A DNA stretch of 51,135 bases. Origin: Deltaproteobacteria bacterium. Lineage in GTDB: Bacteria > Desulfobacterota > JAJRXV01. The notes beneath the pieces are model-generated. The model ran no database searches. It had not been told where the DNA came from and saw nothing but the letters and a program-made list of their open reading frames with translations. The translations under genes and the position numbers were made by a program. Below, in pieces: positions 32-47,772 of the stretch; the first letter of the stretch is position 1; each line of letters opens with the position of its first letter. Location: NCBI GenBank assembly GCA_024275075.1, contig JAJRZU010000066.1, positions 1 through 51,135 on the forward strand, in the 5' to 3' direction.

Positions 32-781
32 TTATATACCGCTGCCATCGAGATAGTTCTCAAAAAACTTGTCGTTTTGCACTTTCTTCTTCTTCTTTTC
101 CGGCGACTCCTCTTCGGTGACGATTGCGTTAAGCTCCTTGTGCTCCGCATAAAGCTTACCCACCTTAAGTTCGAGGTCACGCACCTGCTCTAACAGGCAC
201 GATATCGCCCGTGCCTCGGGGTCTGGCAGCTTGTCGTGATCTAAATCGACTCTGTCGTGATGTTCGCCGTCCCGAAAAACTACCCTGCCGGGTACGCCGA
301 CGATCGTTGAATTCGGGGGCACCTCCTTTACGACGACAGAACCCGCTCCCACCATGGAGCCGCTCCCGATCTCGAAAGGCCCGAGTATCTTCGCGCCGGT
401 ACCGATGACGACGTTACCATGGATAGTCGGGTGCCTCTTCACCTTCTCGGTGCTTGTGCCGCCAAGCGTGACGCCGTGGTACATAGTGACGTTGTCGCCG
501 ACCTCCGCCGTCTCACCGATGACGACGCCCATGCCGTGATCGATGAACACCCTACTACCGATCTTTGCCGCCGGATGTATCTAGATACCGGTCAGAAACC
601 GCGCCAAATGCGACAATAGCCGCGCGGTCAGGTAAAGATTGTGAGTCCACAAAAAGTGCGCGAACCGGTGTATGACGATGGCGTGCAGCCCAGGGTAGCA
701 CAAAAGCACCTCCAGCTTGCTGCGCGCGGCCGGATCACGCTCAAAGACTGTCTTGATATCTTCCTTTATCCTGCGAAACAT
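32..781 (-). CDS. cysE: serine O-acetyltransferase (CysE), interrupted by a single in-frame TAG at 581..583
   Basis: ORFs 581..781 (N-terminal helical part) and 32..550 (hexapeptide beta-helix part) share one frame, 750 nt in total. Together they read ..[51 protein letters not shown].., the hallmark SAT core. The TAG sits where characterised CysE proteins have Glu/Asp (G-[IV]-[ED]-I-H-P). Confidence 0.85.
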
Positions 782-3355: not shown

Positions 3356-3922
3356 ATGGATGAGGATCTGCAATATGTTGAGGAAGCGAGGAGCGGCGAT
3401 AAGGAAGCTTTTTCTTTCTTGATAGAGAAGTACCAGAAGCAGATATTTAATTTTATATATCAGTTCTTTCGGGATTACCACCAGAGCCTGGAGGTGACTC
3501 AGGAGACTTTCTTACGGGCGTTTAAGTTCATACACACCTTTCAGTCCGGCAGGAAGTTTTCGACATGGTTATACTCGATCGCGAAGAACCTTTGTATCGA
3601 TGAGATAAAGAAGCGCTCGAAGGTCAACACGATACCGATAAGCGAGGCTCAGAAGCGCGAGAGTCCCGATGACGGCACCTCGATGCTGTATGTGCACAAG
3701 GACCCTGACGCTGAGATGATAAAGTCTGAGGACAAGCGGGCGTTATTAGAGGCGATCGATAAGTTGCCTGTGAAGTATAAGATGGTCATCACGTTATGTT
3801 ATTTTGATGGTATGAGTTATGAGGAGATATCCGAGGTGGTTGAGATGCCGTTAAGCACTGTGAAGGTGAGGATTTTTCGCGCGAAGAAGAAGTTATTGGA
3901 ATATTTGGACGGTAAAATGTAA
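3356..3922 (+). CDS. ECF (group 4) sigma-70 family RNA polymerase sigma factor
   Basis: Region 2 signature ..EAFSFLIEKYQKQIFNFIYQFF..TQETFLRAF..FSTWLYSIAKNLCIDEIKKR.. and region 4.2 HTH ..MSYEEISEVVEMPLSTVKVRIFRAKKKL... An anti-sigma gene follows. Confidence 0.9.
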   Translation: MDEDLQYVEEARSGDKEAFSFLIEKYQKQIFNFIYQFFRDYHQSLEVTQETFLRAFKFIHTFQSGRKFSTWLYSIAKNLCIDEIKKRSKVNTIPISEAQKRESPDDGTSMLYVHKDPDAEMIKSEDKRALLEAIDKLPVKYKMVITLCYFDGMSYEEISEVVEMPLSTVKVRIFRAKKKLLEYLDGKM

Positions 3923-4056: not shown

Positions 4057-4731
4057 ATGAGAAAATGTAATGAGATAGAGCCATTGATATATGGTTATAT
4101 AACCGGTGATATCCTCTCTTAGCAAAGGAGGGTGTTAGACGATCATATCAAAGAGTGTGACGAGTGCCTTGATGAGATAATGAGGCTCCAGCGCCTTGAT
4201 ATGAACCTGACGGAGCTGAAGGATGTGGAGGCCGGCCTCTCTGAGGATCTTACTGGTGCGATATTAAGCGAACTGCCGGCGAACATCAAAAGGGCAGGCC
4301 GCGGATACGGTCATCACTTCTTCTCAGCGACGACACTGCTCTCCACGGTTACGGTGGTGCTTGCGGTGCTGGTATTCATCCTCGCCGGCAAGGTGGATCA
4401 GATATCGATCACCTCGAAGGCGCCGAAACCGAAATCGGTGAAGATAATGTTCTTCTCAGAGAAGGCGCAGAATGTATCGTTAGTCGGTGATTTTAACGCC
4501 TGGGGCGTAGACCCCCTATTATTATCAAAGGTAAATGGCAATACCTGGGAAGCGGAAGTGAAGCTGGCGCCGGGTATGTACCAATATAATTTAGTGGTTG
4601 ATGGTAAGAAGTGGATTGCTAACCCGAACTCAAAATCATTAGTGCCAGATGGATTTGGCGGTACGAATTCAGTAGTGATAGTCAATGATAACGGGGGGAA
4701 ACAAATTGAGAGTGTCGGTAAGCAGATTTAA
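4057..4731 (+). CDS. zf-HC2 anti-sigma factor with one TM helix and a C-terminal CBM48/AMPK-beta-like beta-sandwich; in-frame TAG at 4120..4122
   Basis: ATG 4057 gives MRKCNEIEPLIYGYITGDILS-TAG-QRRVLDDHIKECDECLDEI.., the usual anti-sigma N-terminus with H-x3-C-x2-C, in frame with ORF 4132..4731. TM segment is FFSATTLLSTVTVVLAVLVFILAG. The C-terminus VSLVGDFNAWG..W..V.LAPGMYQYNLVVDGKKWIANP is typical of CBM48/E_set. Confidence 0.8.
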
Positions 4732-4850: not shown

Positions 4851-5453
4851 TTGTGTAAAATAGTAAACATATTGAGGGTGTATTTAAAAAACATAGGGGT
4901 TTTGTTCCTTTTTGCGCTGACGCTTTTTGCGTATGCGGATACGTGTCATTCAAGAACGATAGATGACTTGCTGTCTGATAGTAGCGTAACCGCAGATGAT
5001 TCGAAGCGGATAAAAGGTATCTATGACAATATACTGAAGTTTGAAATAAAAGAAGATAAGATACTCTTAATAGTAGAGAATGCGTTGAATAAGGATATGG
5101 GGCCGAAGCGGCTGTTACGGCTTTTGGTGCTAATCTCGAAGTCGGCCGTAGAGGATTTACCGACAGAGGCGTTGATTAATAAGGTATTAGAGGGGTTTGC
5201 CAAGAGCGCGCCTACGGATGTCATAATCAATGAAGCAGAGAGTAAGGTACTATTCTTAAAGAATGCGAAGACAATGTTAAACTATTTGACATTAAAGGGG
5301 TTTGAGGCGACAAAGCCAGAGATGGTGATAAACATGTTAAGCATATATTCGACTCAGGGCTGGGACCCTATAGATTTAAAAAGAGCAATTGAGACAGGTG
5401 GACTTTCAAAGAAGGAATTTCATGAATTATCGATGTTTTTAAAACAAAAATGA
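4851..5453 (+). CDS. hypothetical secreted protein (start uncertain: TTG 4851, TTG 4872 or GTG 4878)
   Basis: Long ORF with an N-terminal hydrophobic signal-like segment GVLFLFALTLFAYA. No motif I recognise. Ends in TGA. Confidence 0.55.
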   Translation: MCKIVNILRVYLKNIGVLFLFALTLFAYADTCHSRTIDDLLSDSSVTADDSKRIKGIYDNILKFEIKEDKILLIVENALNKDMGPKRLLRLLVLISKSAVEDLPTEALINKVLEGFAKSAPTDVIINEAESKVLFLKNAKTMLNYLTLKGFEATKPEMVINMLSIYSTQGWDPIDLKRAIETGGLSKKEFHELSMFLKQK

Positions 5454-5457
5454 GAGC

Positions 5458-8241
5458 ATGAAAAGGAGCGGACCTATGACAGGGGAAGTGAAGCCGGGTA
5501 TGATCACAAAAAAGTGGATTGCCTTTAGATGTTTTTTTCTTTTTCTTTTGACTATCTCCATTCTTATTATTTCAGGTCAAAAAAACTCATTTGCTGCGGG
5601 TATTGTCGGTTCAAAGCATGATTTAGTAGCTATTGATTACCCTTACGGTGTATGTACGGAGTGTCACACCCCGCACTATGCCAACGATATAAGGCTGTGG
5701 CCGAGGGTTTCAAATGCCGCGACTAACCCGGCGGCAATAACAACGCCTGACACAGCCGCTGTCTCAAAGATGTGCCTTGATTGTCATGCGTATGATGTTG
5801 TCACTGATCTGCCGGCGCTACCAGGACCCGGTGGGATGTGGGCATGGGGGATTACGTGGCCGGTACCCAGACAGCTGTTTGATAACGCTGGCAACTGGAT
5901 CTACAAGAAGCATGGCGGTAAAACGTACAAAGACTGCGTCAGGTGCCATACCCATGCGACCGGTTTCGGCCTGCCGCCAATAGACCCCCCAACCTCTGCA
6001 ACATGTTACGACTGTCATGTGTGGGATGATACAACGAATAATGATGATATCGATAATTACACATTCGGTACGCAGGCGACAGTGAATTTTTTAGACAGAG
6101 CGATGATAGATGAAGTTCAGTGGACAACCGGCGGTCATCGCGTACCGGCAGTCGACACTTTGCCTGAGACCTCAAGGCGCGCCGCGCAAAGCGGACCTGA
6201 GTTAGGTTGTGTGGATACGGGCGGCGCTATTCCCAATGGCTGCCATGATGATGCGATACTTCACGGAACGGCAGGTAATCCGTTTAGATTAAAAGTAGTC
6301 GGTGGCGCTACCGGCGCTGATATAATCTCGAATTTGTGTGGTCAGACTATCTGCCATCCGCCGCCGGCAGCGGGTGGAGTGCATATGCTTCATGCCGACC
6401 CGGCGCCAGGCCCTGCAAACCTTTATGAAAAAGGCGTATGTTCAGACTGCCACGATCCGCATGGCGACAGCTCCAATGTAGACGCTTCTTTGGTTAGCGT
6501 CCCGGACATTAATATAAACGCGGCGATGATGCAGCGGGAGGTTGTATGGCGGGACAGGTGGACAGCCGGCGCTTTTGGCGACCCGACAGACACGAACCCG
6601 GTAGTCGTTCCCGCGGATGATAAATTAGAACCGATAACACGATTTCATATAACAGGCGGTAATGACGCTTTAAGCTGGGAGATGGCGGATTATGTCAAGG
6701 ACAGCACATCTTTCAGCGGGGTATGTGAAGCGTGCCATACCGCTGACGGCACAAGCGGGGCCATAACAAGATTCTTCAGGAGAAAAGACGCTGACGGGGA
6801 CACTCAGTTGCCATTTCATGACCTGACCGGCACCAATGCGTGCGCATCATGTCACGAGCACGTGAAAGGGTTTCAGAAGCCAGACATTTGCACGTGTATA
6901 GATAACCCGACAACCGGTACAGCCGGCTGTCACACCGGCGTTGACGCTCAGTTTGCTACCGTTGTAGGCGGAGTTTCATCAGGGGCACGCCAGCATGATA
7001 TAGCTTATGACCCTGTTAACAACCCCAAAGGCAACAACCTGTTAGAGGAGGATTGTGAGAACGTAGACTGCCTTAAGTGCCATGACCTTGATACAAACAG
7101 TAACCATACCGACGGAACGGTGTATTTGGACGCGATCGATACAAAGGCTGGTACCGTGCCGCTTCAGTCTCCTTCAGCATATGCCGATGCGGCGCCCGAG
7201 GGCACCGGCACCATTCAGAGCATAAACGATACTGTGTGGGGTAACATACGCGATGATGGCGGGTACACTACCGGGCAGTGGTGCAGAAACTGTCACGATA
7301 TCGACGGACCGCCCGCCGCGGCGTCAACCAACCTTAATGGTAACGCCGTAGCGCCACCGAACGTAGAGTCTGATTCATCCGGCGCCGCACGCTTCACTAC
7401 GACTGGTCATGGCGCGACATCAGGTACAAACTTCCCGCGGGTCGCACCTAACAATACTGCCGGCAGGACGGCATGTACAGGCTGCCACAACTATCATGGT
7501 AGCGACAACATTCGCATGATCCAGAGAGCCGCGTGGAACGGCAGCGCATGGCAGAAGTGGAACGGTGTAAATGTACCAGAGCCGCTGGACACATCTGCGG
7601 CGGATTACCTGTACAACGGAGACGATGTTAATATCTCGAGCGTTGAACTGTTCTGTCTGGAATCGTGTCATGTTGTTGATTCATTCTCATGGACGACGCC
7701 GCAGCCGCTTTCTTTGGACTTTAGTGATGTAATCACGGCAAGAGGCGGCGCAACGACGAAAAGAGCCCACTATGTCTTTGACTACGTAGGCGGTAACCTT
7801 GGCGCTGATTATGATGCGCACAATGACATTACTTACTATTTCAGCGGCAAAGCGGTAGGGTTTGTGCTCGGCGGTACCGCGGGAACACCGTGGAACGATC
7901 TTGATACCTCTGATAGCAATCCTGCCACCCAGAACCATACATACATCAATGACAGCTCTAAGGGAGAGGCGCAAAAGTTTGTGAACATTATCACCTCGAC
8001 ACCTTCGCCAGGAACTATCAACAGCATATTCAAGGCGATTTGGTACAATGATGGCGTGGATAAGGGCAGAGCGATATGTGTGACATGTCACGATCCGCAC
8101 GGTTCTAATGTTGATGCTACATGGGGATTACCAAACAAGGTTCCTGCCAGCACTGATGATAACATGCTCAGAGGCGAATGGATCACTGGTACGGCATGGG
8201 GAGCGGATGCTGATGAGCCGTGTGATTCATGCCATAAGTAA
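5458..8241 (+). CDS. multihaem c-type cytochrome A (12 CxxCH plus 4 variant motifs)
   Basis: Signal/anchor WIAFRCFFLFLLTISILIISG..SFA. There are 12 canonical CxxCH, several as CxxCHDPHG (doubled-CXXCH type). Alternative start ATG 5476 follows AAGGAG. The C-terminal ~745 aa are paralogous to the end of 15945..19994. Confidence 0.9.
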   Translation: MKRSGPMTGEVKPGMITKKWIAFRCFFLFLLTISILIISGQKNSFAAGIVGSKHDLVAIDYPYGVCTECHTPHYANDIRLWPRVSNAATNPAAITTPDTAAVSKMCLDCHAYDVVTDLPALPGPGGMWAWGITWPVPRQLFDNAGNWIYKKHGGKTYKDCVRCHTHATGFGLPPIDPPTSATCYDCHVWDDTTNNDDIDNYTFGTQATVNFLDRAMIDEVQWTTGGHRVPAVDTLPETSRRAAQSGPELGCVDTGGAIPNGCHDDAILHGTAGNPFRLKVVGGATGADIISNLCGQTICHPPPAAGGVHMLHADPAPGPANLYEKGVCSDCHDPHGDSSNVDASLVSVPDININAAMMQREVVWRDRWTAGAFGDPTDTNPVVVPADDKLEPITRFHITGGNDALSWEMADYVKDSTSFSGVCEACHTADGTSGAITRFFRRKDADGDTQLPFHDLTGTNACASCHEHVKGFQKPDICTCIDNPTTGTAGCHTGVDAQFATVVGGVSSGARQHDIAYDPVNNPKGNNLLEEDCENVDCLKCHDLDTNSNHTDGTVYLDAIDTKAGTVPLQSPSAYADAAPEGTGTIQSINDTVWGNIRDDGGYTTGQWCRNCHDIDGPPAAASTNLNGNAVAPPNVESDSSGAARFTTTGHGATSGTNFPRVAPNNTAGRTACTGCHNYHGSDNIRMIQRAAWNGSAWQKWNGVNVPEPLDTSAADYLYNGDDVNISSVELFCLESCHVVDSFSWTTPQPLSLDFSDVITARGGATTKRAHYVFDYVGGNLGADYDAHNDITYYFSGKAVGFVLGGTAGTPWNDLDTSDSNPATQNHTYINDSSKGEAQKFVNIITSTPSPGTINSIFKAIWYNDGVDKGRAICVTCHDPHGSNVDATWGLPNKVPASTDDNMLRGEWITGTAWGADADEPCDSCHK

Positions 8242-9611: not shown

Positions 9612-12600
9612 ATGAGTTTACGGAAAAGTGGAAGGTTTTTTGTTTATTTTATGTTTGTAGCTGTTTTATGTCTGGGCGGCTATCTGGTCTACGATAATGC
9701 GCAGGCGGACCATTCAACAGGCCGCGCGTGTTATAGTTGCCATACGCTTACAACCGCAGGAGCAGAGCAGACAACGTCTTCTATCCTTACTGGGGCGGCT
9801 CAGGGTGTTCAGAACACTGAGTTGTGCGAGGTGTGTCATACCCAGAAGGAACTGACGGAATTTAACCCCGCGGGGACAGTTTCAAGGCATCCTGTCCATG
9901 TTACGACTAACCAGGCGGGTTATCTCTCAACCCGCGGCGACAACTCGCCGTACCAGGCAGTTAACGCTAATAACTCCATAGAATGCTTTAACTGTCATAA
10001 CTCCAAGCAGGTTACAAAAAGGGGTGACACTACACCAAGCTCTGACGCGAATGCGTACCCTGACCATACATGGGAGCAGATAGACTATCCCGGGCAGGTT
10101 AGTCAGGTCGCACCATGGGACTATCTTGAAAACCATCTCTATGGTACTGAAGGCGGGGTTACAGCCTTAGGCACCTTTTACGATGATTTAAACTATAACG
10201 CCTGTTACGGAGGATCTCCTATACTCGCGAAAAGTACCGCGAACGAGACGATCAACACAGGGCCTACTACTACAAACCCTGTCTTTCCAGGTTGTCATGG
10301 TACGATTGTCGACTCCAAGGGTAAAACAATTCAAGACTATATGACTGTCAATCAGGGAGGAAGAAAAGGAAGCGCCACGATGGGACACGCTATATCCGCT
10401 GACGGCGCTATTATCTCCTGCCGGACATGCCACGACCCGCACGGTAGTACAAGCGCTATCAGGCTGTACACAGGGCCGAACTATGAGTCACAAAACTTTA
10501 ACTCGGTCAACGCGATTTGTAGGGACTGCCACGGATACGATACCGGTACCGGTGGTGCAGCCCCATCGCCAATTACTATTTATGTAAACAACGCAGGCAC
10601 CGCGGAGACAAGGGTTGTTACCGCGCCGGCGCCGCCATGGGTAGGACGTCCATATCTTAACATCCCGCACGGCCTTGAAAGTAACATAAACTCCCCTATA
10701 GAAGGTCAGGCAAATAAATATAATAACGAGGCATGTTGGGAGTGCCACTCTGTTCACCAGCCTCCACCGCCTCCTGATGATGTATCCGTAGAATGTGAGG
10801 TATGTCACGTATGGGATCCGACTACTGACAACGATGATGTCGATAACTATACATTCGGCACCGGTGACTACTCTGACAAAGCTATGATAGACGCGACTCA
10901 GTGGACGACTGCTGGTCACGGCGTACCAGCGGGCAACTTCATGCCGATGACTAATGCAAGATGGCCGTCTAACAATGCTTTCGGCCCTGAACTGAGCTGT
11001 GCGGATACGGGCACGACAGATGGTTGTCACGATCCGAACGTTGCTCACGGTACCGCAACCAACCCGTTCAGGCTTATGGGTAAGACCGGTGTCGGTACAT
11101 ACACTAACACAATTACAAAAGAAGATCATCAAACAGGAGGGGTACAGGCAAACGGACCTGATGGCGTATGTTACAGGACAGACGGTCCCGCATGTCATAA
11201 CCCGGATATAGACACTGACAGACACGACTTTAATGCCGCTTATGCCGGCGGCGTCTGCTTTGACTGCCACGATCCGCATGGCGACAGCTCTAACGCCGAC
11301 CCGACCACAACGCCGATCCCAGACACTAACATAAACGCGGCGATGATCCAAAGAATGCCCGTCGGTGGTGAATGGGTGGCGAATACCCATTATGGAAGGT
11401 TCCCTGACTCAGGCGGAGCTTTTGGTATCGTTACCGCTGCAAACTCATATCCATCAGCAAGGTATGTCGCGACAAACTCAAAAAGCGACTACTACAAGGA
11501 TAATCTTAACTACAGTGGTATATGCGAGACGTGCCATACCGCTGACGGTCCTGGCGCTGTATCTGATGGCGGCAGTATAACAAATTATTTTAGAAGAGAC
11601 AACGGCGACGGCGACGACCTTTCGCTGGTGAATTATCATGATCCTATAGCGACGCCCGAGCAGTGCGCGCTAAAATGCCACTTACACTCAAAGAAATTTG
11701 AGCCCGGCGGCAAGTGTATCGAGTGCCACGCTTCACCGCAGGGTTCTCATCCGGCGATTGTAACGCTGGACTTAACCTCCGGTCAGATAGAGCTTACAGC
11801 CGACGGTGCGAACGGCGCTATGTCCAAGCACGTTGGCGGCTCAACGACGGGTATCACATCGTTTGAATGTGTTATCTGTCACTTAGAAGGCCAGATCGTA
11901 GCCGGTAATCCAGAGCCGAACAGCACTTACCATAAAAACGGTACAGTTGAGCCAAGAGATCAAGCCTCCGGCGGCGAGATCGCGGCCCTTGGCGCTGGCG
12001 GTAGCTACACGCCAACGCTCGACGCGCGAGGCTATGCTACAAACGCGTACTTGTTGAACGCGAACTTCTGCGGCGGATGCCACGACGCTAACGGCGCCGA
12101 ATGGTGGGCTACAAAGGGCGGAAACGCGTTGCAACCATTCAACAACTCAGCTATGTCCGATGCTGACGGCGTCCCCGGTGCGAACGATACGACCACGGTG
12201 CCTGACATCTATTCAAGATATAATAACGTAGGGCTTGGTGAGAACACCGGCGGCACAGGTGACCTCGAGGGTAAGAGCTCGGCTATGTACAGTAAATTCA
12301 CCACGGCGAATTATAATGTTGTGCCGCAGATAATGAAAGCTTATTCTCCGCACGGCAACCCGTCTACTAATGTAACAAAATCAGAGTTTCAGGGTGAGAC
12401 CCCGGGCGTTAATACATTTGTAACGAATCCCGTGGCGTGTCTTAACTGCCACCCCGCGCACGGTTCTGATATCACTGCTTCCGGGGAAACCGGTTATAAT
12501 CAATTAGGCGCGAACGGCGGCGCTATGGTGCGTACCGCTGATCCTTCATTATGCTGGGATTGTCACAGCAAACCAGTTGCGAACGTGTGGGACTTCTACG

Positions 12601-15600
12601 GCGATACTGACAGGGTCAGCGCGAACCCGCTTCAGTGGAGCGTTGGCGGCGGCAACTGGACAAGAGGCACAGGTCCCTTTAACTATAAGGGCGGATACCA
12701 GATGCGAAGTATACATACCCCGGCTAACGCCGGCGGCGTCATCGCATGTGGGGTATGTCACGACCCGCACGGTATCGATACCGCGAACACAGCTAATGAA
12801 TACTTCCTGCTCCCTTCTCTAAGGGTGGGGGCGGGCGACCCGGGCGGATGGGTTACATCCCCTTATAAAGAGGACAGGCCGGGTAACAAAACCGGCTCCG
12901 TAGCGCCTGAAGACCCGACACAGGTCAATGGCGAGCCGTACAAGCTTGCAGGGAAAGGCTGGAACGGCCCTACGTATGCAGACTGGTACGATGGTAACGG
13001 CGCTCCGACTAACCAGAACAAAGGTACAGGCCCAAGGGTGGAGCCTATGACTTCCGGCGGTAGCTTCGCCTACTGTAACCCGCCGGAAATCGGCGGCGGC
13101 TACGGTGACGGCGCTGACGCCACTTATGGCGGCAACGGTCATCAGGGATTCTTCTTGAACGACAACACATTTGGGACAGACGGTATCATGTTGTTTGCCG
13201 GCAAGGCGGGGGATAACTTTGAGCAGGCGCCTGTTACAGTCAATCCGCAGGCAGCGTTTGAAGCTGACGGCGGCGCCACAGGCGTATTCACATTAAACGC
13301 TTTCAGCGGCTTTTGCAAGAACTGCCATTCAGCTACAGACGCTCTTGGCATAGAATATGGATCATGGACGGGACACCACTCGGTATTCGGCGTCACTCCA
13401 TATAACGACGTGTATAATCAGTCGATCGCTCAGTATGTTCACGGCGGTCCGCAGGGTAAAGAGGAAGAGATAAGGCTTCTGGCTACAAACGAGGTGGGTA
13501 GGTCATCTGGCGCCGGCATGAAGTGGGCGATAACCCAGGGTAACTTCACTGTAGGCGCTGAAATGAACTGGCAGATGGAGGCTAACGGGAATAAGGTCAA
13601 CTATCATGAATTTACGTGTTCTAAGTGTCACACTCCTCACTCTTCTGTTATCGACAGGCTGATGAGGACAAACTGTCTGTCAGGCGGTAACACGAGCGAT
13701 GACTCGACCTCAACGCCGGGCTCTGGCACCAACGGTCCGTCGGTTATCGACACGACCGTAGGTAACTGGGTTGATACGGAAACGACGAATAGAGCGGGCT
13801 ATACATATCCGCATCCGTATTTTGCCGCTGTTACCCCTACAGTCGAAGCGTTTACGATGCACTGCCACAACAGCTTTATGTATGTAAACGGCACCGACCC
13901 GGGCTGGGGTATGGGGCAAACAGGGCAAAACGCGGATGGCGTGACCATAACTTATAATGGCGGCTGGCAGAAACTAAGCGCCAACGGAAACGACCCGGGC
14001 GGATGCGCTACGATCGCGTGTCACTCGTTCTTCCCGAACTTTGCGATCGCGACTGCCGAGGGGAGTCCTAACTCGATTCAAAGATCGGGCGCTCACAGGG
14101 TGCATCTGGACTTGGCTTTTGACAGCACGTATACATCAGGAGCTGATCCTGAGTCATTCTATGATTCAGACGGCGACGGCGTGCAGGACAAGTTCGGCCT
14201 TGGCGACCTTGCTCAGCTTGACTGCGATTACTGCCATGCGTATGGGGCAGGCAGTACACCTCCGCGAGATAATGCAAACGCCGCTCCTCACAGGAACGGT
14301 ACTATAGAATTTGCCGACGCGGGTAACCCTGACTTGACGGGCACGACTATCTGCGCTAACTGCCATGCGGATGACGCGGCGGCGAAAGCTAACTGGGGCG
14401 GTAACTCCAACGATGACTACACGCGGCTGGCATGTACAAGCTGTCATTCACAGACCTCGCCGGCGTGGACTATTTTCGGTAATGTCAGAGGCGCGAACGT
14501 GAATGGCGACGGCAGTAACTACGGCTTCTTCATCAATGGCCACGGTTTGGACAGCGGCAGCTTATATGGATGGGATGCGACATCACTCGGCGCCAACTTC
14601 TTAGGTGACCCGGGTACTGATACTGACTCTGACAGCATCGGTGATGACGGTTGTATGTATTGTCATGATATAACATCGCCGCATATAGACGCTAACACTG
14701 CAAACGGCTCGCAGGGCTTCAGGTTTGAGTCAGGTAACTTCCCGAGCACAGCGTCAGTTTCCGCTGTATGCCTTGACTGTCACGAAAGAGCTGACGGACC
14801 TGGCGGCGGCGCGACAAACGCCAGACTGGCGACAGATTCCACCGACCTGATACTTGACCACGACTCCGCGTCGATGTCAGCGGTTCCTGTCAGTTACACA
14901 AGGCTGAACAGTTCAATAACATGGGGTTTTGCGCCTGACTGTAACGATTGTCACGACCTGCACGGCAGTACAAACAGGATGATGATCGGTTCAAACCATA
15001 CGGCAGCGGTTCCACCGGCGCCAGACGCTGTTAACGCGAGGATAACAGACCAGAACGAAGCCGCGTGGACACCTAACAATATAATCGTCGATTACAAGAA
15101 CCCCTTGGCTTTTGAATTAGGTAAGACTACAGCGCCGATAGGCCCTTGTATCACATGCCATAGAAATGGCGCGCCTAACGGTACTGATCATAACAACCAG
15201 AACTCGGTTAATAACGATCACACGCATGGCGGTCCGACAAGTACAGTAACAAGTCCTGTGGTCTGTACGGATTGTCATAAGCATAAGAAGGCGTTCGCTC
15301 CTTCCGCCTGCGACGAATGTCACGGCTGGCCTCCAGGGTACAATGACCCTGGCAAAACGGGAGAGGCAGTAGGTTCTATAGAGCAGCCAACTCTTATAAC
15401 GGCGCCTGAAGCTGGTGCGCATCTATTCCATACCAGGCAGAACGTAGGCACTACCGCTACGCCTGGACAACCGAAACTTGATACCGCATGTGCGGAGCAG
15501 GGCTGTCACGTTCGGATCAGTTCTGGCGCGGCAACGGGTCATAGTACCCCTGACGACCAGACGGCGGAAGTCGATTTTGATATCATAAACGACTATGCGA

Positions 15601-15872
15601 CGGGCACTAACCCGACATATCCGAACCATGCGCAGGGCGACCCGATAATCGTCAAGGATATTGCTGGTGGTACTGGTGATAACTCTGGTCTCGGCGATGG
15701 TTCAAGGGACAGAAACATTGGTAACACTCTTGACTCTGGAGACGCCACTGGTTTGGGTACTGCGACCGGCGGTCAGAGTGACGCTACATGTACAAATATC
15801 TATTGCCACAGTACTGTCGTCAAGCAGGCGTCAGGCGACTGGTGGGTAACAGGTGCGACGCCGCCAAAATGA
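9612..15872 (+). CDS. giant multihaem c-type cytochrome B (27 CxxCH plus CX4CH variants); ends at a TGA that is in frame with the next ORF
   Basis: RBS agagggag. Signal anchor FFVYFMFVAVLCLGGYLVY. I hand-counted 27 canonical CxxCH, plus CATIACH, CAEQGCH and CTNIYCH (CX4CH). The final unit CTNIYCHS..WWVTGATPPK-TGA lacks its partner CxxCH, which lies just past the stop. Confidence 0.9.
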   Translation: MSLRKSGRFFVYFMFVAVLCLGGYLVYDNAQADHSTGRACYSCHTLTTAGAEQTTSSILTGAAQGVQNTELCEVCHTQKELTEFNPAGTVSRHPVHVTTNQAGYLSTRGDNSPYQAVNANNSIECFNCHNSKQVTKRGDTTPSSDANAYPDHTWEQIDYPGQVSQVAPWDYLENHLYGTEGGVTALGTFYDDLNYNACYGGSPILAKSTANETINTGPTTTNPVFPGCHGTIVDSKGKTIQDYMTVNQGGRKGSATMGHAISADGAIISCRTCHDPHGSTSAIRLYTGPNYESQNFNSVNAICRDCHGYDTGTGGAAPSPITIYVNNAGTAETRVVTAPAPPWVGRPYLNIPHGLESNINSPIEGQANKYNNEACWECHSVHQPPPPPDDVSVECEVCHVWDPTTDNDDVDNYTFGTGDYSDKAMIDATQWTTAGHGVPAGNFMPMTNARWPSNNAFGPELSCADTGTTDGCHDPNVAHGTATNPFRLMGKTGVGTYTNTITKEDHQTGGVQANGPDGVCYRTDGPACHNPDIDTDRHDFNAAYAGGVCFDCHDPHGDSSNADPTTTPIPDTNINAAMIQRMPVGGEWVANTHYGRFPDSGGAFGIVTAANSYPSARYVATNSKSDYYKDNLNYSGICETCHTADGPGAVSDGGSITNYFRRDNGDGDDLSLVNYHDPIATPEQCALKCHLHSKKFEPGGKCIECHASPQGSHPAIVTLDLTSGQIELTADGANGAMSKHVGGSTTGITSFECVICHLEGQIVAGNPEPNSTYHKNGTVEPRDQASGGEIAALGAGGSYTPTLDARGYATNAYLLNANFCGGCHDANGAEWWATKGGNALQPFNNSAMSDADGVPGANDTTTVPDIYSRYNNVGLGENTGGTGDLEGKSSAMYSKFTTANYNVVPQIMKAYSPHGNPSTNVTKSEFQGETPGVNTFVTNPVACLNCHPAHGSDITASGETGYNQLGANGGAMVRTADPSLCWDCHSKPVANVWDFYGDTDRVSANPLQWSVGGGNWTRGTGPFNYKGGYQMRSIHTPANAGGVIACGVCHDPHGIDTANTANEYFLLPSLRVGAGDPGGWVTSPYKEDRPGNKTGSVAPEDPTQVNGEPYKLAGKGWNGPTYADWYDGNGAPTNQNKGTGPRVEPMTSGGSFAYCNPPEIGGGYGDGADATYGGNGHQGFFLNDNTFGTDGIMLFAGKAGDNFEQAPVTVNPQAAFEADGGATGVFTLNAFSGFCKNCHSATDALGIEYGSWTGHHSVFGVTPYNDVYNQSIAQYVHGGPQGKEEEIRLLATNEVGRSSGAGMKWAITQGNFTVGAEMNWQMEANGNKVNYHEFTCSKCHTPHSSVIDRLMRTNCLSGGNTSDDSTSTPGSGTNGPSVIDTTVGNWVDTETTNRAGYTYPHPYFAAVTPTVEAFTMHCHNSFMYVNGTDPGWGMGQTGQNADGVTITYNGGWQKLSANGNDPGGCATIACHSFFPNFAIATAEGSPNSIQRSGAHRVHLDLAFDSTYTSGADPESFYDSDGDGVQDKFGLGDLAQLDCDYCHAYGAGSTPPRDNANAAPHRNGTIEFADAGNPDLTGTTICANCHADDAAAKANWGGNSNDDYTRLACTSCHSQTSPAWTIFGNVRGANVNGDGSNYGFFINGHGLDSGSLYGWDATSLGANFLGDPGTDTDSDSIGDDGCMYCHDITSPHIDANTANGSQGFRFESGNFPSTASVSAVCLDCHERADGPGGGATNARLATDSTDLILDHDSASMSAVPVSYTRLNSSITWGFAPDCNDCHDLHGSTNRMMIGSNHTAAVPPAPDAVNARITDQNEAAWTPNNIIVDYKNPLAFELGKTTAPIGPCITCHRNGAPNGTDHNNQNSVNNDHTHGGPTSTVTSPVVCTDCHKHKKAFAPSACDECHGWPPGYNDPGKTGEAVGSIEQPTLITAPEAGAHLFHTRQNVGTTATPGQPKLDTACAEQGCHVRISSGAATGHSTPDDQTAEVDFDIINDYATGTNPTYPNHAQGDPIIVKDIAGGTGDNSGLGDGSRDRNIGNTLDSGDATGLGTATGGQSDATCTNIYCHSTVVKQASGDWWVTGATPPK

Positions 15873-15944
15873 GGTTATACAGTAGTATGTGGCGATTGTC
15901 ACAGCGCGACCAACCCTGCGTCACAGCCTCACCAGACCCATGCG

Positions 15945-18900
15945 GTGACATACGGCTTCTTATGCCAGGATTGTCACAATGGCCGTGGCAGGACAGCCGC
16001 CGCCACAACTGCATATCATGTAAATGGCTATGTAGAGCTGAACATAAGTAAGACGTTAGGGGCAGCGACAGTAACAGGGACATTCAGTTCAACTTATTCA
16101 GTCGCAGCGGGCACAACTAACGATAACCTGCCTGGCGATTATGCGAGAGCTGGATGGTGTGACAACGTTTACTGTCACAGCAATGGCGTAGAAATAAAAG
16201 GCATGGCGGCAACTTATCAGACAGTTGACTGGAATGACTTTGGAACGCTGACATGTTCATCATGTCACGGTACGGGCGGTACGTCAGCACACGGCGAGCC
16301 TGATTACGCGAGTGGCGGAGCAGGCTCGGCAAGCGCTAACAGCCATGAGGCGCATATAGGTAAGGCAGGCCTGAATAATGACAGGCTTGAGTTGCATTGC
16401 AGTGACTGCCATTCGGCTACAGTAGTCGCGGGTTCTGATTACATCAGCGCACCGACTATCAACGCTCCGAACGGCGGAACGCACGTAAACGGCGTTGTGG
16501 ATGTTTCAAGCGCTTCATTTACATTATCATACAACGTAAACGGGCAGAAGAAATGCTATAGTTCTTGCCACGGTACTTATAATACAACAACTGAAATTGC
16601 TTGCGCGCCTCAGTGGGGCGGCGGTTCTAAAAGCGGAGGGTACGGTTCATGCCAGATGTGTCATGATGTCAATTCATGCGATCCTGAAGATGTTGTAAGA
16701 CCTAAGGCACCGACTGATCAGAAACCAGCGGGTACTGCTCACGCGAATAAGATTGACTTCGCTCAGTACACCGGTGCCGGGGCAACCGGTCATGGACTTG
16801 ATTCCGCGTCAACGTATGCGGGCGGTATTAATGCCGGTGCCGGTCTTATTTGGACAGCGGGCACTTTATATGATCCATTTGATGTCGGGACAGCAGATGT
16901 AGGGTGCTTGTCAACAAGCGGTAATATGGCTACGCCGGGAGATGGCTGTCACTCATATCTGTTGCAGTCAGGTACTCGTGACTGGGATAAGTACAAGAGC
17001 CACTATACCGCTAAACCGGCGGCTACACACTCAGGCGATGACTTCTTCTTAGGGAGTAGCTTCCAGTCCAACATTGACGCGCTCTGTGAATATTGTCACG
17101 ATGGAGTTACAGCGCCAGGTCTTTCAGGTGGTAACTTCTCACATACTAAGGGTACGACAGGTTCGGCTCTTACATGGCCATACGTTCCGAAGTGTGTTGA
17201 CTGTCACGATCCGCACGGTGATGGGAATGACTATATGATCAAGTACGCTGTTTCAAGGGATTATGGTAGTCTCGCTAACGGTAACCCTGCTTTGTCTGAC
17301 CTGTCATCACCGAACCTGGGTTCAACGCAGGCGGAGATAGACTTGATGTTGCCTGTTACATTCAATGTGGATCAAGTCACTGGATTTGACGGCGGCATCG
17401 GTAAAGCCGGCGATTATTATCAGGCCAATCCGACAACGAACGGTAACGGTATCTGTCAGGTATGTCATACCCAGAACCTGGTCTATGATAACGAGGCTAT
17501 AAGCGGCACCGCGACTACAACGCACCAGAACTGGCTTGATGCGGCATTAAACAGTCCGTTTGATACTGACGCGCCGGTTCAGGACTTCCTGTCACCGAGC
17601 GGTCGAAGGTGTAGTTCATGTCATAAGCACTTTGAGTGTGATACAGAGAAAGGATTCCCGATACCGAAACCGAATCCGCCTTGTACGCCGGCTCCATACT
17701 GCTCAGATTGTCACGTATGGAACCCGAACGGCGACACGAATCATCCGTTAATGACGACTCAGGCTAACGGCGGTCTTAATGGTCATCCCGGATTCAAGGA
17801 TCCGACTGGTCAGAATGACGACATTGATGATTACACATTCGGTACGACTGACTTTACTAACAGAGCGATGATAGACGGCGTTCAGTGGACATCCGGCGGT
17901 CATGGTACAGCGACGTCAGTTTCGTTGCCAGAGACATCAAAGGGTATAAACGCAGGGCCACAGCATTCATGTACGCCTGGTACTACATCAGATGGTTGTC
18001 ATGATTCTACGGTATTGCACGGAGACGCCGGGAACCCGTTCAGGTTGTTGGTATATAATGCAGCTACCGGCGGGGCCATAATAAATGAGCTTTGTTCAAA
18101 TTGTCACCCGCCACCGACGCTTGCAGGTGTACATAAGCGACATGCTAATGGTAAGACCCCAATGTTTGAAGCTGGTCAATGTACAGACTGTCACGATCCT
18201 CATGGCGAGAGCGCGAGAACGGATGCAGGGTTGACGACTGTCAATGACGCTGACTTAAACGCGGCGATGATTCAGCGGGAGTTAGTCTGGAGAGACAGAT
18301 GGACAGCCGGCGCTTTTGGCGACCCGACAGACACGAACCCGGTAGTCGTTCCCGCGGATGATAAGTTAGAGCCGGTGGTAAGATTCTATAAAGCTGGTGG
18401 TCTTAACGCAACAGCTTGGGATATGAAGGATTATGTCACTGAGTCATCATTAAACAGTGGTGTCTGTGAAGCGTGCCACACAGCTGACACCGTAGGCGAG
18501 CCTGAGACGCAGTTCTTTAGAAGAAAGAACGCTGACGGCAGTACGGAGGCTTCATTACCTTCATTCCACAAGACGGCTAACGCGGATTACTGTACAGCCA
18601 GTTGTCATACGCACGTAAAAGGTTTCGAGAAACCTGACCTGTGTAGTTGCTTGTCATGTCATGCCGGCGTCGACAGGCAGTTTGCTCCGGTTGACGGTTC
18701 AAACGTGTCGTCAGGTCCCCAGCAGCATGACATAGTGTACAATCCACCAACCAGTCCTCCCTCTACAGGGAGTCTTGACGCGGATTGTAATACGGGAGGA
18801 ACTGTAGATTGCCTGAAGTGTCATGACCTTGACACTAATGGTAACCATATGGACACAACGGTTTATTTAAAACCGATAGACTCGACCAAGACAGGCGCTT

Positions 18901-19994
18901 CCCCGTTGACGTCACCTTCAGCATATGCGGAGGCCGCTCCAATGGGTACGGCAGGCGCCCAGAGTATTGGAATGACCGTATGGGGTAATATCAGGTCTGA
19001 TTCTACCGGTACGTATGAGACTGGTGAATGGTGTAGAAGTTGCCACGACCTGAACGGTCCGCCTTCCGCGGCGTCAACCAACCTTAATGGTAACGCCGTA
19101 GCGCCGCCGAACATAGAGTCTGATTCCTCCGGCGCCGCACGCTTCACTACGACGGGTCATGGCGCTCAATCAGGAGCTAACTTACCGCGGGTCGCACCTA
19201 ACCCGGCTACGAATAATGGTAGAGCGGCATGTACAGGCTGTCACAACTATCACGGTAGCGACAACGTTCGCATGATCCAGAGAGCCGCGTGGAACGGTAG
19301 CGCATGGCAGAAGTGGAACGGTGTAAATGTGCCAGAGCCGCTGGACACATCTGCGGCGGATTATGTGTACAACGGTAATTCCACTACTATATCGAGCGTT
19401 GAACTGTTCTGTCTGGAATCGTGTCATGTTGTTGATTCATTCTCAGCTCTGCCGCCGGAACCATCATTGGACTTTAGTGATGTAATCACGGCAAGAGGCG
19501 GCGCAACGACGAAAAGAGCCCACTATGTATTTGACTACGTAGGCGGTAACCTTGGCGCTGATTATGATGCGCACAATGACACCAATTTCTACTTCAGCGG
19601 TAAAGCGGTAGGGTTCGTGCTCGGCGGTACTGCGGGAACTCCGTGGAACGATCTTGATACCTCAGATGGCAATCCTGCCACTCAGAACCATACGTACATC
19701 AATGACAGCTCTAAGGGTGAGAGCGCGAAGTTTACGACTGTTATCACCTCGACACCTTCGCCAGGTACTATCAACAGCATATTCAAGGCTATTTGGTATA
19801 ACGATGGACTGAACAAGGGTAGGGCGATATGTGTGACATGTCATGATCCACACGGTTCTAATGTTGATGCTACATGGGGACTACCAAACAAGAGTCCTTC
19901 CAGTACGGATGATAACATGCTCAGAGGCGCATGGATCAATGGTACGGCATGGGGAGCTGATGCTGACGAGCCATGTGATTCATGTCATAAGTAA
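15945..19994 (+). CDS. multihaem c-type cytochrome C (18 CxxCH plus variants); probably the continuation of 9612..15872
   Basis: Same frame as 9612 (offset 6333 = 3 x 2111). The 24 codons 15873..15944 are open and encode GYTVVCGDCHSATNPASQPHQTHAV, a 19th CxxCH. No RBS precedes GTG 15945 and the ORF has no signal peptide of its own. Confidence 0.85.
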   Translation: MTYGFLCQDCHNGRGRTAAATTAYHVNGYVELNISKTLGAATVTGTFSSTYSVAAGTTNDNLPGDYARAGWCDNVYCHSNGVEIKGMAATYQTVDWNDFGTLTCSSCHGTGGTSAHGEPDYASGGAGSASANSHEAHIGKAGLNNDRLELHCSDCHSATVVAGSDYISAPTINAPNGGTHVNGVVDVSSASFTLSYNVNGQKKCYSSCHGTYNTTTEIACAPQWGGGSKSGGYGSCQMCHDVNSCDPEDVVRPKAPTDQKPAGTAHANKIDFAQYTGAGATGHGLDSASTYAGGINAGAGLIWTAGTLYDPFDVGTADVGCLSTSGNMATPGDGCHSYLLQSGTRDWDKYKSHYTAKPAATHSGDDFFLGSSFQSNIDALCEYCHDGVTAPGLSGGNFSHTKGTTGSALTWPYVPKCVDCHDPHGDGNDYMIKYAVSRDYGSLANGNPALSDLSSPNLGSTQAEIDLMLPVTFNVDQVTGFDGGIGKAGDYYQANPTTNGNGICQVCHTQNLVYDNEAISGTATTTHQNWLDAALNSPFDTDAPVQDFLSPSGRRCSSCHKHFECDTEKGFPIPKPNPPCTPAPYCSDCHVWNPNGDTNHPLMTTQANGGLNGHPGFKDPTGQNDDIDDYTFGTTDFTNRAMIDGVQWTSGGHGTATSVSLPETSKGINAGPQHSCTPGTTSDGCHDSTVLHGDAGNPFRLLVYNAATGGAIINELCSNCHPPPTLAGVHKRHANGKTPMFEAGQCTDCHDPHGESARTDAGLTTVNDADLNAAMIQRELVWRDRWTAGAFGDPTDTNPVVVPADDKLEPVVRFYKAGGLNATAWDMKDYVTESSLNSGVCEACHTADTVGEPETQFFRRKNADGSTEASLPSFHKTANADYCTASCHTHVKGFEKPDLCSCLSCHAGVDRQFAPVDGSNVSSGPQQHDIVYNPPTSPPSTGSLDADCNTGGTVDCLKCHDLDTNGNHMDTTVYLKPIDSTKTGASPLTSPSAYAEAAPMGTAGAQSIGMTVWGNIRSDSTGTYETGEWCRSCHDLNGPPSAASTNLNGNAVAPPNIESDSSGAARFTTTGHGAQSGANLPRVAPNPATNNGRAACTGCHNYHGSDNVRMIQRAAWNGSAWQKWNGVNVPEPLDTSAADYVYNGNSTTISSVELFCLESCHVVDSFSALPPEPSLDFSDVITARGGATTKRAHYVFDYVGGNLGADYDAHNDTNFYFSGKAVGFVLGGTAGTPWNDLDTSDGNPATQNHTYINDSSKGESAKFTTVITSTPSPGTINSIFKAIWYNDGLNKGRAICVTCHDPHGSNVDATWGLPNKSPSSTDDNMLRGAWINGTAWGADADEPCDSCHK

Positions 19995-20245: not shown

Positions 20246-20755
20246 ATGATGAGAAAAATTAGTTTTATTGTTATATTGGTTGTACTATCATTAATGACCG
20301 CGAGTTTCGTGTTTGCAGAAGGAGCGAAGGAAGGCGACGTGACGCCGAAAATAATCCTGAAGGATGTAAGGACTAACCAACCGACAAAGCTCAATGAAAT
20401 AATTAAGGGTAAAGTAACGGTGTTAGTATATATGCAGACATCCTGCGCCGCATGCAGGAAGGAGCTTGAAGCATTAAAGAACATGAAGGATTTTGTGCCA
20501 GAGCTAAATATAATAGCTGTTAGCGTTGATGCCGGCTGCACAAACAGGATTAAGAAGTACATCGACCATTATAAATTTGATTTTATGTTCTTACATGACC
20601 CAAGCTTTACAACTCCAGAGCTGTTTAATTTCTCTTTCACGCCTGCTACCGTCGTAATAGTAAAAGATGGCAAGATAATAGCGTTAAAAGGCGGATATAG
20701 AAAGGGAGACGAGAAAAAGATAATGGAAATTGTGCAGGATGCTTTAAAGAAATAA
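20246..20755 (+). CDS. TlpA/ResA-like thiol:disulfide oxidoreductase (thioredoxin fold, C-A-A-C)
   Basis: RBS aaaggaga. Signal or anchor SFIVILVVLSLMTASFVFA. Redoxin core KGKVTVLVYMQTSCAACRKELEALK...FTPATVVIVKDGKI. Confidence 0.75.
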   Translation: MMRKISFIVILVVLSLMTASFVFAEGAKEGDVTPKIILKDVRTNQPTKLNEIIKGKVTVLVYMQTSCAACRKELEALKNMKDFVPELNIIAVSVDAGCTNRIKKYIDHYKFDFMFLHDPSFTTPELFNFSFTPATVVIVKDGKIIALKGGYRKGDEKKIMEIVQDALKK

Positions 20756-20813: not shown

Positions 20814-20944
20814 TATTATATCTTCTTTTTTAACTCTTTGACCTTATTTCTTATACTTTTATTCTTTGCGGCTTCTTTGTTATACTTCAAGTAAGATTCA
20901 TAACTTTTGAGCGCGCCCTCGTCATCATCGATCTTAAGGTAGAT

Positions 20945-22375
20945 TTAAGCTAAATTAAGGTAGTAGAATGAATAGAACCTCTTCTCATCCTGTGAGAGTA
21001 AAGAAAAGGTGTTTTCATATACTTCCTTCGCTTTCTCATATTTCTTGAGGTTATAATAGCAGTCAGCGACATAGAAATTAAGGTCATAAGCCTCAATTCC
21101 TAAGCTTATCAGCTTTAAGTATGCGTCTAAGGACTCCTGGAACTGCCCCTTCTTGTAATACAGATTAGCCATTGTAGTCAGTATCGGGATATCGTCACTA
21201 TGATTCTTATAAGCAAAGCTTAAAAACTTAAGTTTCAAGTCTTCATACTGGAGATGACTTAACAAGTCAACATAGGCTAAAACGTAGTATTTATCACGCT
21301 TAATAGCCTCCTCAAGATACCCGGAAGCTTCTTCATAATCACTTCTCTTTAAGCTTATTGTTGCAAGCTGGTAGTAAATAGCCGGGTCATCAGGGGTTAG
21401 GGTCAATATCTTGTTATAAATGCTCACCGCGTTATCATATTCAATGAAGAACAGATTCTTATCAGCTTCCTGCTTTAATAACCAGGCTTTCTTCGGCGCC
21501 TGCATGTGTGACGGTTCACTAAAAATGGTCTTTAAAATATTTGACAGGAACCTGAACTGCATAGAGATCTTCAAAGTCCTGTTAGCGTTTACAATAGTGA
21601 TATATTGAGAAATTAAAGGCACCTTCTGGAGCGCTAACAAGAAATTTACCACGATATCCTCAATGGGTGTCTTGACGTTATCAACGATAAAAGCTGGGAA
21701 ATATGAAAGGCTTATACTAATGATAACCGGGTCTCGCTGCTCTTGCAGGTCAGTGATATGAACGACCGTTACAGGTACGCCAAGCAATGTGCCTTCGAGT
21801 TTATTGTCTGAATAAGTAAATGAATCAATATCTTCTTTCGGATAATTAAAACCAGGGTTACTCCTAAGCTTCTCTTTAAAGAAATCCAGGTAATCCTCCT
21901 TGATGGATTCATAAACCGGCAGTACCCATATAATCTTCTTGATCAGGCCTAACCGGTGCGCGGCGTACAGATAATTATAAGGAGCATATAGCCGTTTAAA
22001 CTTCGTAGTTATACCGGTATAGGTCTCTAAAAGATCGTAATTATTATTCTGTATCAGCTGCTTGGCTTCTGCTATCTGAGCATCAGGGATACTTGATGTG
22101 ATCTCAAGGTTAGCGTCAACAAGTATAAGCGTTGCGTCTCTTATACCGTTTTTTGCCCAGAGTGCGATGTTATCAGAGCCTATTTCAACTATCTCAACGT
22201 TTCTGACCTTATCTATAAAAACCGCGGCTGGCTCTGGCGATGCTTTTGCGGGTTCTAAAGCTAAGTCAGATCGTATCTTAGTTGCTTTTGGCTCTTTTGT
22301 CCTGGTATTGTAGTAATACAAAGACGCAAAAGCGATGATAATAATAAAAGTTATTGTTACGAATATTTTTTTCAT
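20945..22375 (-). CDS. membrane-anchored TPR-repeat protein; annotated stop TAA (20945..20947) is in frame with 42 further TPR-like codons down to 20816
   Basis: Likely start is ATG 22375 (MKKIFVTITFIIIIAFASLYYY, RBS ggtgga). TPR units include YYQLATISLKRSDYEEASGYLEEAIK, ANLYYKKGQFQESLDAYLKL and VADCYYNLKKYEKAKEVYENTF. After the TAA the frame continues IYLKIDDDEGALKSYESYLKYNKEAAKN... Confidence 0.75.
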   Translation of the reverse strand: MKKIFVTITFIIIIAFASLYYYNTRTKEPKATKIRSDLALEPAKASPEPAAVFIDKVRNVEIVEIGSDNIALWAKNGIRDATLILVDANLEITSSIPDAQIAEAKQLIQNNNYDLLETYTGITTKFKRLYAPYNYLYAAHRLGLIKKIIWVLPVYESIKEDYLDFFKEKLRSNPGFNYPKEDIDSFTYSDNKLEGTLLGVPVTVVHITDLQEQRDPVIISISLSYFPAFIVDNVKTPIEDIVVNFLLALQKVPLISQYITIVNANRTLKISMQFRFLSNILKTIFSEPSHMQAPKKAWLLKQEADKNLFFIEYDNAVSIYNKILTLTPDDPAIYYQLATISLKRSDYEEASGYLEEAIKRDKYYVLAYVDLLSHLQYEDLKLKFLSFAYKNHSDDIPILTTMANLYYKKGQFQESLDAYLKLISLGIEAYDLNFYVADCYYNLKKYEKAKEVYENTFSLLSQDEKRFYSFYYLNLA

Positions 22376-22894
22376 TTTTCCACCTGAAATTAAATTTAAC
22401 AGGCCAGCCTGTTTTTTATGGGGGTTAATTTCCCGCATCTTGTTACTATAAGATTAATCCAGATATGTGGGAGTAGTCCATTAATTTATGAAAAGCTATC
22501 AAAAAACGGTGAATAAATCAAGGAAATAAGTTTAATGAACTAAGTTAATGAACTTTCTCGCGGCAAGCTGACGAGAACCTGCCCTAACCCGCGGGGAATC
22601 AAGCCCATAGATAAAAACCGGTGCGCCTGTTCAGCAAGAATGAAAATAGTTTACAAAAGTCTTGAAACTTTTATTTTATATTTTAGTATTTAGGTATTAT
22701 AAAGTGATTAATAATTTTCTTGTTGATAAATTCATCTTAATACTTTATAAAAAGGGGGTTGCATCAAAATAACTGCGTTTTCTCAAGGAGGAGGCATGAT
22801 GCCTCAGTTATTAAGGGCTTGGTATAGAGGTTGTTAAGGTATAAATAAACTTAATGAGTTATTCTTGACTTATTTCATTAAAAGAGGAGGGCTT

Positions 22895-27401: not shown

Positions 27402-27500
27402 CAATAGAAAAAATATGGTGACAAAAAGTAACTATTTTATCGATTGTTAAGTATAAGTAGATGTAAAAAAAATCTTTTCAAAAAAGATGAGGAGAAAAAT

Positions 27501-29852: not shown

Positions 29853-29942
29853 ATTATTAAACCATGTAACTAATGGGGTGTATTCTGGTATTATTAAACA
29901 GCATAAAAATAAACTCGGTTGAATGGAAACAGGAGGAAATAA

Positions 29943-35471: not shown

Positions 35472-35560
35472 CTAAACAGATGAATGGTAACTAATAGTTG
35501 CCAGGAAAGTATTTTATGATGAAAGAGTTATTTATAGACATAGAAAAAGGAGATAAACCG

Positions 35561-47718: not shown

Positions 47719-47772
47719 TCTGTTGATTATGATTACAAGGAACCGATAAGAGGAGTAAATTTCAAATTCTCT

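Follow-up and report, generated by a model that had tools for sequence, protein, structure and literature searches.

A single reading frame with one internal TGA

The contig JAJRZU010000066.1 (51,135 nucleotides, analysed over its whole length and called the window below) carries at positions 9612-19994 what is probably a gene for a giant multihaem cytochrome, interrupted by one TGA (Table 1). Translated in one frame, this region contains 1 internal stop among its 3,460 codons. The stop is located between CTNIYCH and CGDCH, and the joined peptide over the junction reads ...TPPKWGYTVVCGDCH.... The part upstream of the stop is open reading frame (ORF) A, whose ATG has a Shine-Dalgarno-like sequence, GAGGGAG, 5' of it; the mechanically called frame downstream is ORF B. 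With Trp at the stop, the joined apoprotein has a mass of 363 kDa and contains 45 CxxCH motifs (26 in ORF A and 19 after the stop) and 8 non-overlapping Cx3-4CH motifs, that is, up to 53 motifs; these figures come from motif counting only, and attachment of the haems is predicted. A first-pass annotation of this DNA had placed ORFs 9612-15872 and 15945-19994 in one frame, with 24 open codons between them encoding a CxxCH, and translation confirms this. It had also counted 27 + 19 canonical motifs (about 46 haems); the 19 downstream motifs stand, whereas the recount gives 26 upstream and 45 in total. The three sibling units listed there for comparison were found at about 32754, 31425 and 16554.

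The stop falls within a CxxxxCH...W...CxxCH unit. The 93-residue junction peptide was compared with TIGR01904, the NCBIfam model of the CxxxxCH/CxxCH domain, which has a curated cut-off of 27 bits. The score depends on the residue put at the stop: 30.0 bits for Trp, 21.8 for Gly, 21.2 for Arg, 20.6 for X and 19.2 for Cys. Trp is thus the only one of the five residues tried that passes the cut-off. Taken separately, the two halves of the junction remain below it (22.0 bits for the upstream half and 9.8 for the downstream one).

In the window and in locus L001, which contains three tandem cytochrome genes, 22 other Cx4CH...CxxCH units were found. In twenty of them a Trp precedes the CxxCH by 6-13 residues, and in 8 of these 20 the Trp is directly followed by Gly. 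In the split unit the stop is at offset 6 from the CxxCH and the next residue is Gly. There is a DWW near the stop, 15-16 residues upstream, and this is beyond the range of the Trp positions in the sibling units. Two homologues, P0002 (Logan SRR29063593) and P0003 (ENA), are 29-31% identical to the protein, align over the junction, and have W-G at the position of the stop. With X at the stop, BLASTP against the three L001 cytochromes gave six alignments that span the junction as well. The continuity of the junction is far beyond chance, because a curated domain model spans the stop and several homologues align over it.

The downstream part has no start and export signals that could be recognized. 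No Shine-Dalgarno-like sequence was found before GTG 15945. No signal peptide was found in ORF B either: within its first 300 residues no 15-residue stretch exceeds a hydropathy of 0.93, whereas ORF A and three sibling cytochromes reach 2.3-2.8 in their signal or anchor segments (the maximum in ORF A, 2.37, is reached from residue 9, as in an N-terminal signal or anchor). A normal member of the family has a signal peptide of its own and ends shortly after a complete unit. ORF A, by contrast, terminates in the middle of a unit.

No decay is evident in ORF B. Its end and the paralogous gene 5458-8241 have 72% identity over 754 aligned codons, with dS of about 0.9 and a ratio of nonsynonymous to synonymous divergence (dN/dS) of 0.25. 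All 14 haem motifs of the paralogous stretch (14/14) have counterparts in the 5458-8241 gene, and BLASTP aligns the C-terminal module with the 927-aa cytochrome at 66% identity over 816 aa. This gene lies two genes upstream, and the paralogy suggests that the giant gene grew by duplication or fusion of modules.

The best reading is that the two ORFs represent one ancestral continuous gene in which a single base substitution, TGG to TGA, changed a conserved Trp codon, because the downstream part has neither a start signal nor an export signal, and because the domain model, the sibling units and the homologues agree. Four claims of the first-pass annotation thereby hold: that the two ORFs were originally a single gene, that the stop is inside a CxxxxCH...W-G...CxxCH unit at the place of the Trp, that TGG to TGA is the simplest explanation, and that ORF B could not be exported alone.

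Table 1. Coordinates of the interrupted cytochrome gene, its parts, and the other in-frame stops of the window.
Feature	Position	Strand	Remarks
Reconstructed single gene	9612..19994	+	3,460 codons with one internal TGA; homologues align over the junction
ORF A	9612..15869, TGA at 15870-15872	+	ATG start, 2,086 aa, 219 kDa, 26 CxxCH + 4 variant motifs
In-frame TGA	15870..15872	+	At the position of a conserved Trp; presumably derived from TGG
Open codons from the stop to the first possible start	15873..15944	+	24 codons encoding GYTVVCGDCHS, with the split unit's haem motif CGDCH
ORF B (mechanical call)	15945..19994	+	GTG start (V2112), TAA end, 1,349 aa; no ribosome-binding site, no signal peptide, no decay
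Split CxxxxCH...W...CxxCH unit	15789..15902	+	CTNIYCHSTVVKQASGDWWVTGATPPK-stop-GYTVVCGDCH; TIGR01904 spans the stop
NapC/NirT-like N-terminal region	9645..10022 (residues 12-137)	+	Membrane anchor, then the first haem motifs; PF03264
C-terminal module, about 800 residues	17604..19991	+	Paralogous to the separate 927-aa cytochrome gene 5458-8241
cysE stop, TAG	581..583 (gene 32-781)	-	In the FLTGI... stretch; invariant Glu, 79/80 relatives
Anti-sigma factor stop, TAG	4120..4122 (gene about 4057-4731)	+	Within the zf-HC2 domain
TPR protein stop, TAA	20945..20947 (gene about 20816-22438)	-	Within the last TPR repeat, 42 more codons after
FN3-like surface protein stop, TAA	36575..36577	+	Splits 1,304 aa into ORFs 35498-36577 + 36623-39412
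Probable outer-membrane beta-barrel stop, TAA	47716..47718 (ORF 46216-47718 + 47719-48054)	+	C-terminal Phe signature only

In-frame stops in other genes and in related genomes

Lone in-frame stops were observed in five other genes of the window. One of them is cysE, the serine O-acetyltransferase gene. With X at its stop, its product and TIGR01172 match over the whole length (250.7 bits, cut-off 210.65), and at the other 44 near-invariant positions there is a single difference, a Gly-to-Ala change typical of the clade. The anti-sigma factor gene adjoins the gene for an ECF sigma factor (3356-3922). PF13490 spans its stop, and among the residues reachable in one step Glu scores best, 28.7 bits against 26.5 for X; the mechanical ORF starts at GTG 4132, has lost the zf-HC2 domain and matches no profile.

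In the TPR protein the stop is spanned by TPR models with sub-threshold single-repeat scores, and these do not discriminate the ancestral residue. In the FN3-like surface protein the neighbouring repeats align over the stop (E = 5e-14 in a repeat-to-repeat alignment). This 1,304-aa protein contains Big_1 domains; Pfam did not recognize the FN3-like repeats. Its first ORF bears a signal peptide and the second has none. The frame of the probable barrel gene is open for 112 codons past the TAA, ends with ...STGFTMDF, and is then closed by two stops. It is the weakest of the companion cases, because no homologue of the interrupted protein was found among 5.8 billion proteins.

The contig thus contains at least six lone in-frame stops in 51 kb (1 TGA, 2 TAG and 3 TAA), a density of about 1 per 2,500 codons, and they are spread roughly in proportion to gene length. 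No shared sequence context was found around the six stops. No frameshifts were found in the genes of the window (about 15,000 codons), except in an insertion sequence (IS) transposase remnant at 1788-2504. This DDE transposase remnant (PF13751) is broken over three frames and accounts for the only frameshifts of the window; it adjoins the genes of tRNA-Leu(CAA), 968-1054, and tRNA-Arg(TCT), 1635-1711.

The cytochrome TGA therefore appears to be one case of a contig-wide process that makes substitutions only, rather than a property of this gene, because five other genes have a lone stop, because TAG and TAA occur as well as TGA, and because frameshifts are confined to the IS remnant. The stop is thus no singular event of the cytochrome gene, as at least five other genes of the window have one in-frame stop each. 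In draft metagenome assemblies nonsense-interrupted genes look similar in that a lone stop occupies a conserved residue, the frame is intact and there is no decay downstream. Unlike such cases, here there are six in 51 kb, all three stop codons are involved, and no intact gene has a frameshift. For annotation the consequence is practical: gene callers break six genes of the contig at the lone stops and so create false "signal-less" cytochromes and surface proteins.

The best genome match of cysE is a public metagenome-assembled genome (MAG), "Deltaproteobacteria bacterium Dive96_bin3.187" (JAJRXV01), with 76-77% identity, followed by genes of the Geobacter type with about 66%. By this gene the organism would be placed near an uncultured clade. 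Two syntenic contigs of the MAG, L002 and L003, are 88% identical and contain one lone in-frame stop each. In L003 TAG at 2984-2986 stands opposite GAG (Glu) in L002, and the sequence downstream is still conserved. In L002 TAA at 9751-9753, in a class IV aminotransferase gene, stands opposite AGA (Arg) in L003. Together, the two independent assemblies, which stem from related organisms and amount to about 71 kb, show eight lone stops and no frameshift.

On the other hand, the related loci L036, L082, L083 and L084 of the cysE clade (about 48 kb) contain no convincing in-frame stop. The phenomenon is thus specific to certain genomes or assemblies and not a trait of the whole clade, because these four loci are free of such stops. 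Recoding throughout the clade was considered and is disfavoured by the same count, 0 in-frame stops across the four loci.

Origin of the stops

The likeliest causes of the stops would be an artefact of the consensus sequence or real nonsense alleles. The larger part of the probability, a little above one half, we give to a consensus or assembly artefact, as might arise from, e.g., a damaged, heavily amplified or low-coverage template. Real nonsense alleles in the sampled population are a possible source, and clearly a less probable one. The premature stop probably has no biological message.

Several points weigh against this reading of the stops. The sequence alone does not separate an artefact from a real allele. 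Six random stops imply a substitution error of about 0.15-0.3%, which is unusually poor for an assembled consensus, although such a rate is possible with a low-coverage or a damaged and heavily amplified template. The cysE gene is undamaged, apart from its stop, at 45 near-invariant positions. Neutral decay should produce frameshifts too, and about 15,000 codons contain none. Two lone in-frame stops also occur within 20 kb of Dive96_bin3.187, a public MAG of independent origin. Finally, the ancestral residues that can be inferred are all of the kind that tolerated suppression predicts, namely Trp where there is TGA and Glu where there is TAG.

If the stop is taken literally, translation would end after 2,086 residues, and the exported product would be a cytochrome of about 219 kDa that has 26-30 haem motifs and lacks part of its last unit. 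The 1,373 codons downstream would yield no exportable protein, except through the few ribosomes that might read UGA with Trp-tRNA and so restore the original residue. Even a real stop would be expected to let a little full-length protein through with the original Trp, because read-through of UGA by Trp-tRNA amounts to 2-4% in reporters of E. coli (PMC10570021).

Functional read-through or suppression, whether across the genome or in this gene only, is doubtful even when both forms are taken together. The genome-wide form, which we consider improbable, would be a tolerated suppression or an incipient recoding with UGA read as Trp and UAG, perhaps UAA as well, read as Glu, so that the full 3,460-residue cytochrome is made. 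In such a genome, and perhaps in the Dive96 MAG too, changes of Trp and Glu codons to stops would be near-neutral and would accumulate, while frameshifts would still be purged. The residues are in agreement with this: TGA replaces Trp in the cytochrome, TAG replaces Glu in cysE, Glu is the best-scoring residue in zf-HC2, and GAG of L002 corresponds to TAG of L003. So are the eight lone stops with zero frameshifts in the two assemblies and the conserved sequence downstream of the stops. For bacteria, a tRNA-Trp variant has been described whose anticodon stem has 4 bp and which reads UGA (PMC13092985). However, only four sites allow the ancestral residue to be inferred, Glu and Trp codons commonly lie a single step from a stop codon, and the TAA of L002 is opposite Arg and not Glu. 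In-frame stops are extremely rare, 1 TGA per 187 TGG and 5 TAG or TAA per 793 GAG or GAA, and all three codons also serve as normal terminators of genes. The window has no suppressor tRNA, its only tRNAs being Leu-CAA and Arg-TCT, and the 48 kb of L036 and L082-L084 are free of such stops. Suppression of all three stop codons is not known from any bacterium, and this too counts against suppression.

The corresponding specific statement, that the stops are real and are read through by means of an unusual tRNA or a weakened release factor, with UGA at Trp and UAG (perhaps UAA) at Glu, is distinctly improbable. If it were true, a cytochrome of about 50 haems and 3,460 residues would be made along with the other five interrupted proteins, and all three stop codons would be decoded ambiguously in a free-living bacterium. 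Of all the elements, only the nonsense pattern across the contig could prove surprising: if the stops are real and fixed, it would be a sign that stop codons are suppressed in a free-living bacterium.

Leaky termination confined to the cytochrome gene is very improbable. In such a scheme the stop would be real and retained, Trp-tRNA would be a competitor of release factor 2, and mostly the 2,086-residue form would be made with a few per cent of the full-length protein, which would set the ratio of short to long electron conduits. UGA is the leakiest stop codon, and its decoding by Trp-tRNA reaches about 2-4% in E. coli reporters (PMC10570021); moreover, read-through would restore exactly the ancestral Trp, and ORF B is fully intact. 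However, the cytochrome gene is not singled out, as the five other genes with lone stops include cases of TAG and TAA. The stop breaks a haem-binding unit and does not coincide with a module boundary, there is no stimulatory structure downstream, and no orthologue was found that could show conservation of the stop. A check for programmed read-through gave no orthologue and showed ORF B to be intact, which is also expected after a very recent change or an error.

Two explanations remain that are highly improbable even jointly. One is that ORF A and ORF B are two true neighbouring genes and that ORF B has its own expression and export, which is hardly credible. Tandem large cytochrome genes are common in the family, and L001 has three in a row. 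However, each of these has its own signal peptide, whereas ORF B has neither a signal peptide nor a ribosome-binding site; the stop is within one domain unit, and the 24 codons before the first start are open and encode the CxxCH of the split unit. The other is insertion of selenocysteine at the TGA, for which one could cite the position of an in-frame TGA within a redox protein and the use of selenocysteine in many Desulfobacterota; it is effectively refuted. The 81 nucleotides from the stop (15870-15950) contain no hairpin like the selenocysteine insertion sequence (SECIS) and fold like shuffled sequence (z = 0.08), a search of Rfam downstream of the TGA gave nothing relevant, and the family and the homologues have Trp and not Cys at this place, Cys giving the lowest score (19.2 bits against 30.0).

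The TGA does not appear to be a programmed signal. Neither a terminator nor a long repeat was found near the junction; misassembly via repeats was ruled out, as the junction has no long repeat. The codon tally in the genes of the window (15,244 codons) gives 187 TGG against 1 in-frame TGA, and TGA acts as a true terminator at 5451-5453. These two observations rule out a reassigned code of the table 4 type with UGA as Trp.

The cytochrome, its relatives and its neighbourhood

With fair assurance, the product can be described as a giant multihaem cytochrome of the c type that belongs to the Geobacter-type CxxxxCH/CxxCH family and comes from an uncultured Desulfuromonadia-like bacterium, its gene carrying a premature stop. 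The Pfam and NCBIfam architecture consists of a NapC/NirT-like anchor (PF03264, 29.2 bits against a cut-off of 24.1, residues 12-137), regions like MtrC/MtrF domains II/IV and cytochrome c7, paired CXXCH motifs, and CxxxxCH/CxxCH units. The segment after the stop also matches TIGR01904 (37.7 bits, cut-off 27) and PF09698 (29.3 bits, cut-off 21.7). By analogy with these families, the protein would be exported by the Sec system and its haems would be attached in the periplasm; 45-53 closely spaced haems could then serve as a long electron conduit, with electrons hopping along the chain.

Cytochromes with TIGR01904 and PF09698, first defined in Geobacter sulfurreducens, have the same repeated CxxxxCH, conserved Trp and CxxCH, and P0002 and P0003 contain the same Pfam domain. 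However, the members of this group and the homologues found here have about 1,000-1,450 aa against 3,460 codons with a premature stop, and in the present gene the units are fused to NapC/NirT-like, MtrC-like and c7-like modules. The N-terminal region resembles the NapC/NirT/CymA quinol dehydrogenases (PF03264), in which a hydrophobic helix is directly followed by CxxCH motifs. These are proteins of about 200 aa with four haems, whereas here the module, if real, makes up the first 4% of the protein, and oxidation of quinol would be a tentative assignment.

Very large multihaem cytochromes are known in Desulfuromonadia, with up to 87 haem motifs, and with 69 and 53 in earlier reports (PMC11492766). 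They likewise consist of one long chain that carries tens of motifs, their conservation between species is poor, and their predicted role is long-range electron transfer or storage of electrons (PMC11492766). The present protein differs in having 45-53 motifs against 87 and in its best database identity of 29-31%. The first-pass annotation had called the repaired protein exceptionally large, and with 45 canonical and up to 53 motifs against 87 (PMC11492766) this does not hold; the protein is large, but no record. Extracellular multihaem cytochromes are in general poorly conserved and often species-specific (PMC12977616).

Among 5.8 billion proteins, no relative of the giant cytochrome exceeds 31% identity. 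The search in this set gave no orthologue and only the two distant homologues at 29-31%. No record of the exact ORF A and ORF B proteins was found in the contig index, and metagenome contigs contained no match to a pattern of 27 bases around the stop in which N stood for the third base of the stop. The 801-aa junction region served as query in a protein-guided scan that covered 185,579 species genomes and revealed no relative, and a search of the sequences of solved structures with the same region gave no match. The cytochrome appears to be a highly divergent new example within a known long tail. At face value, its meaning is that of one more such example, new and very divergent, in an electron-transfer cluster.

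The neighbourhood of the gene fits an extracellular-electron-transfer island. The cluster includes an ECF sigma/anti-sigma pair, four more multihaem cytochromes (3, 12, 12 and 22 CxxCH), a TlpA/ResA-like thiol-disulfide oxidoreductase, beta-propeller, FG-GAP/beta-helix and MopE-like proteins, a probable outer-membrane barrel, and a SurA-like chaperone. Just 3' of the giant gene, at 20246-20755, is the gene for the TlpA/ResA-like secreted protein (AhpC/TSA-Redoxin), and it is plausible that this protein acts as a thiol-reducing helper in haem attachment.

The large cytochrome genes (5458-8241, 9612-19994 and 27444-35471) have a G+C content of 50-55% against 36-45% in their neighbours. Candidate causes of this gap are the amino-acid composition, with much Gly, Ala, Cys and His, or a foreign origin.

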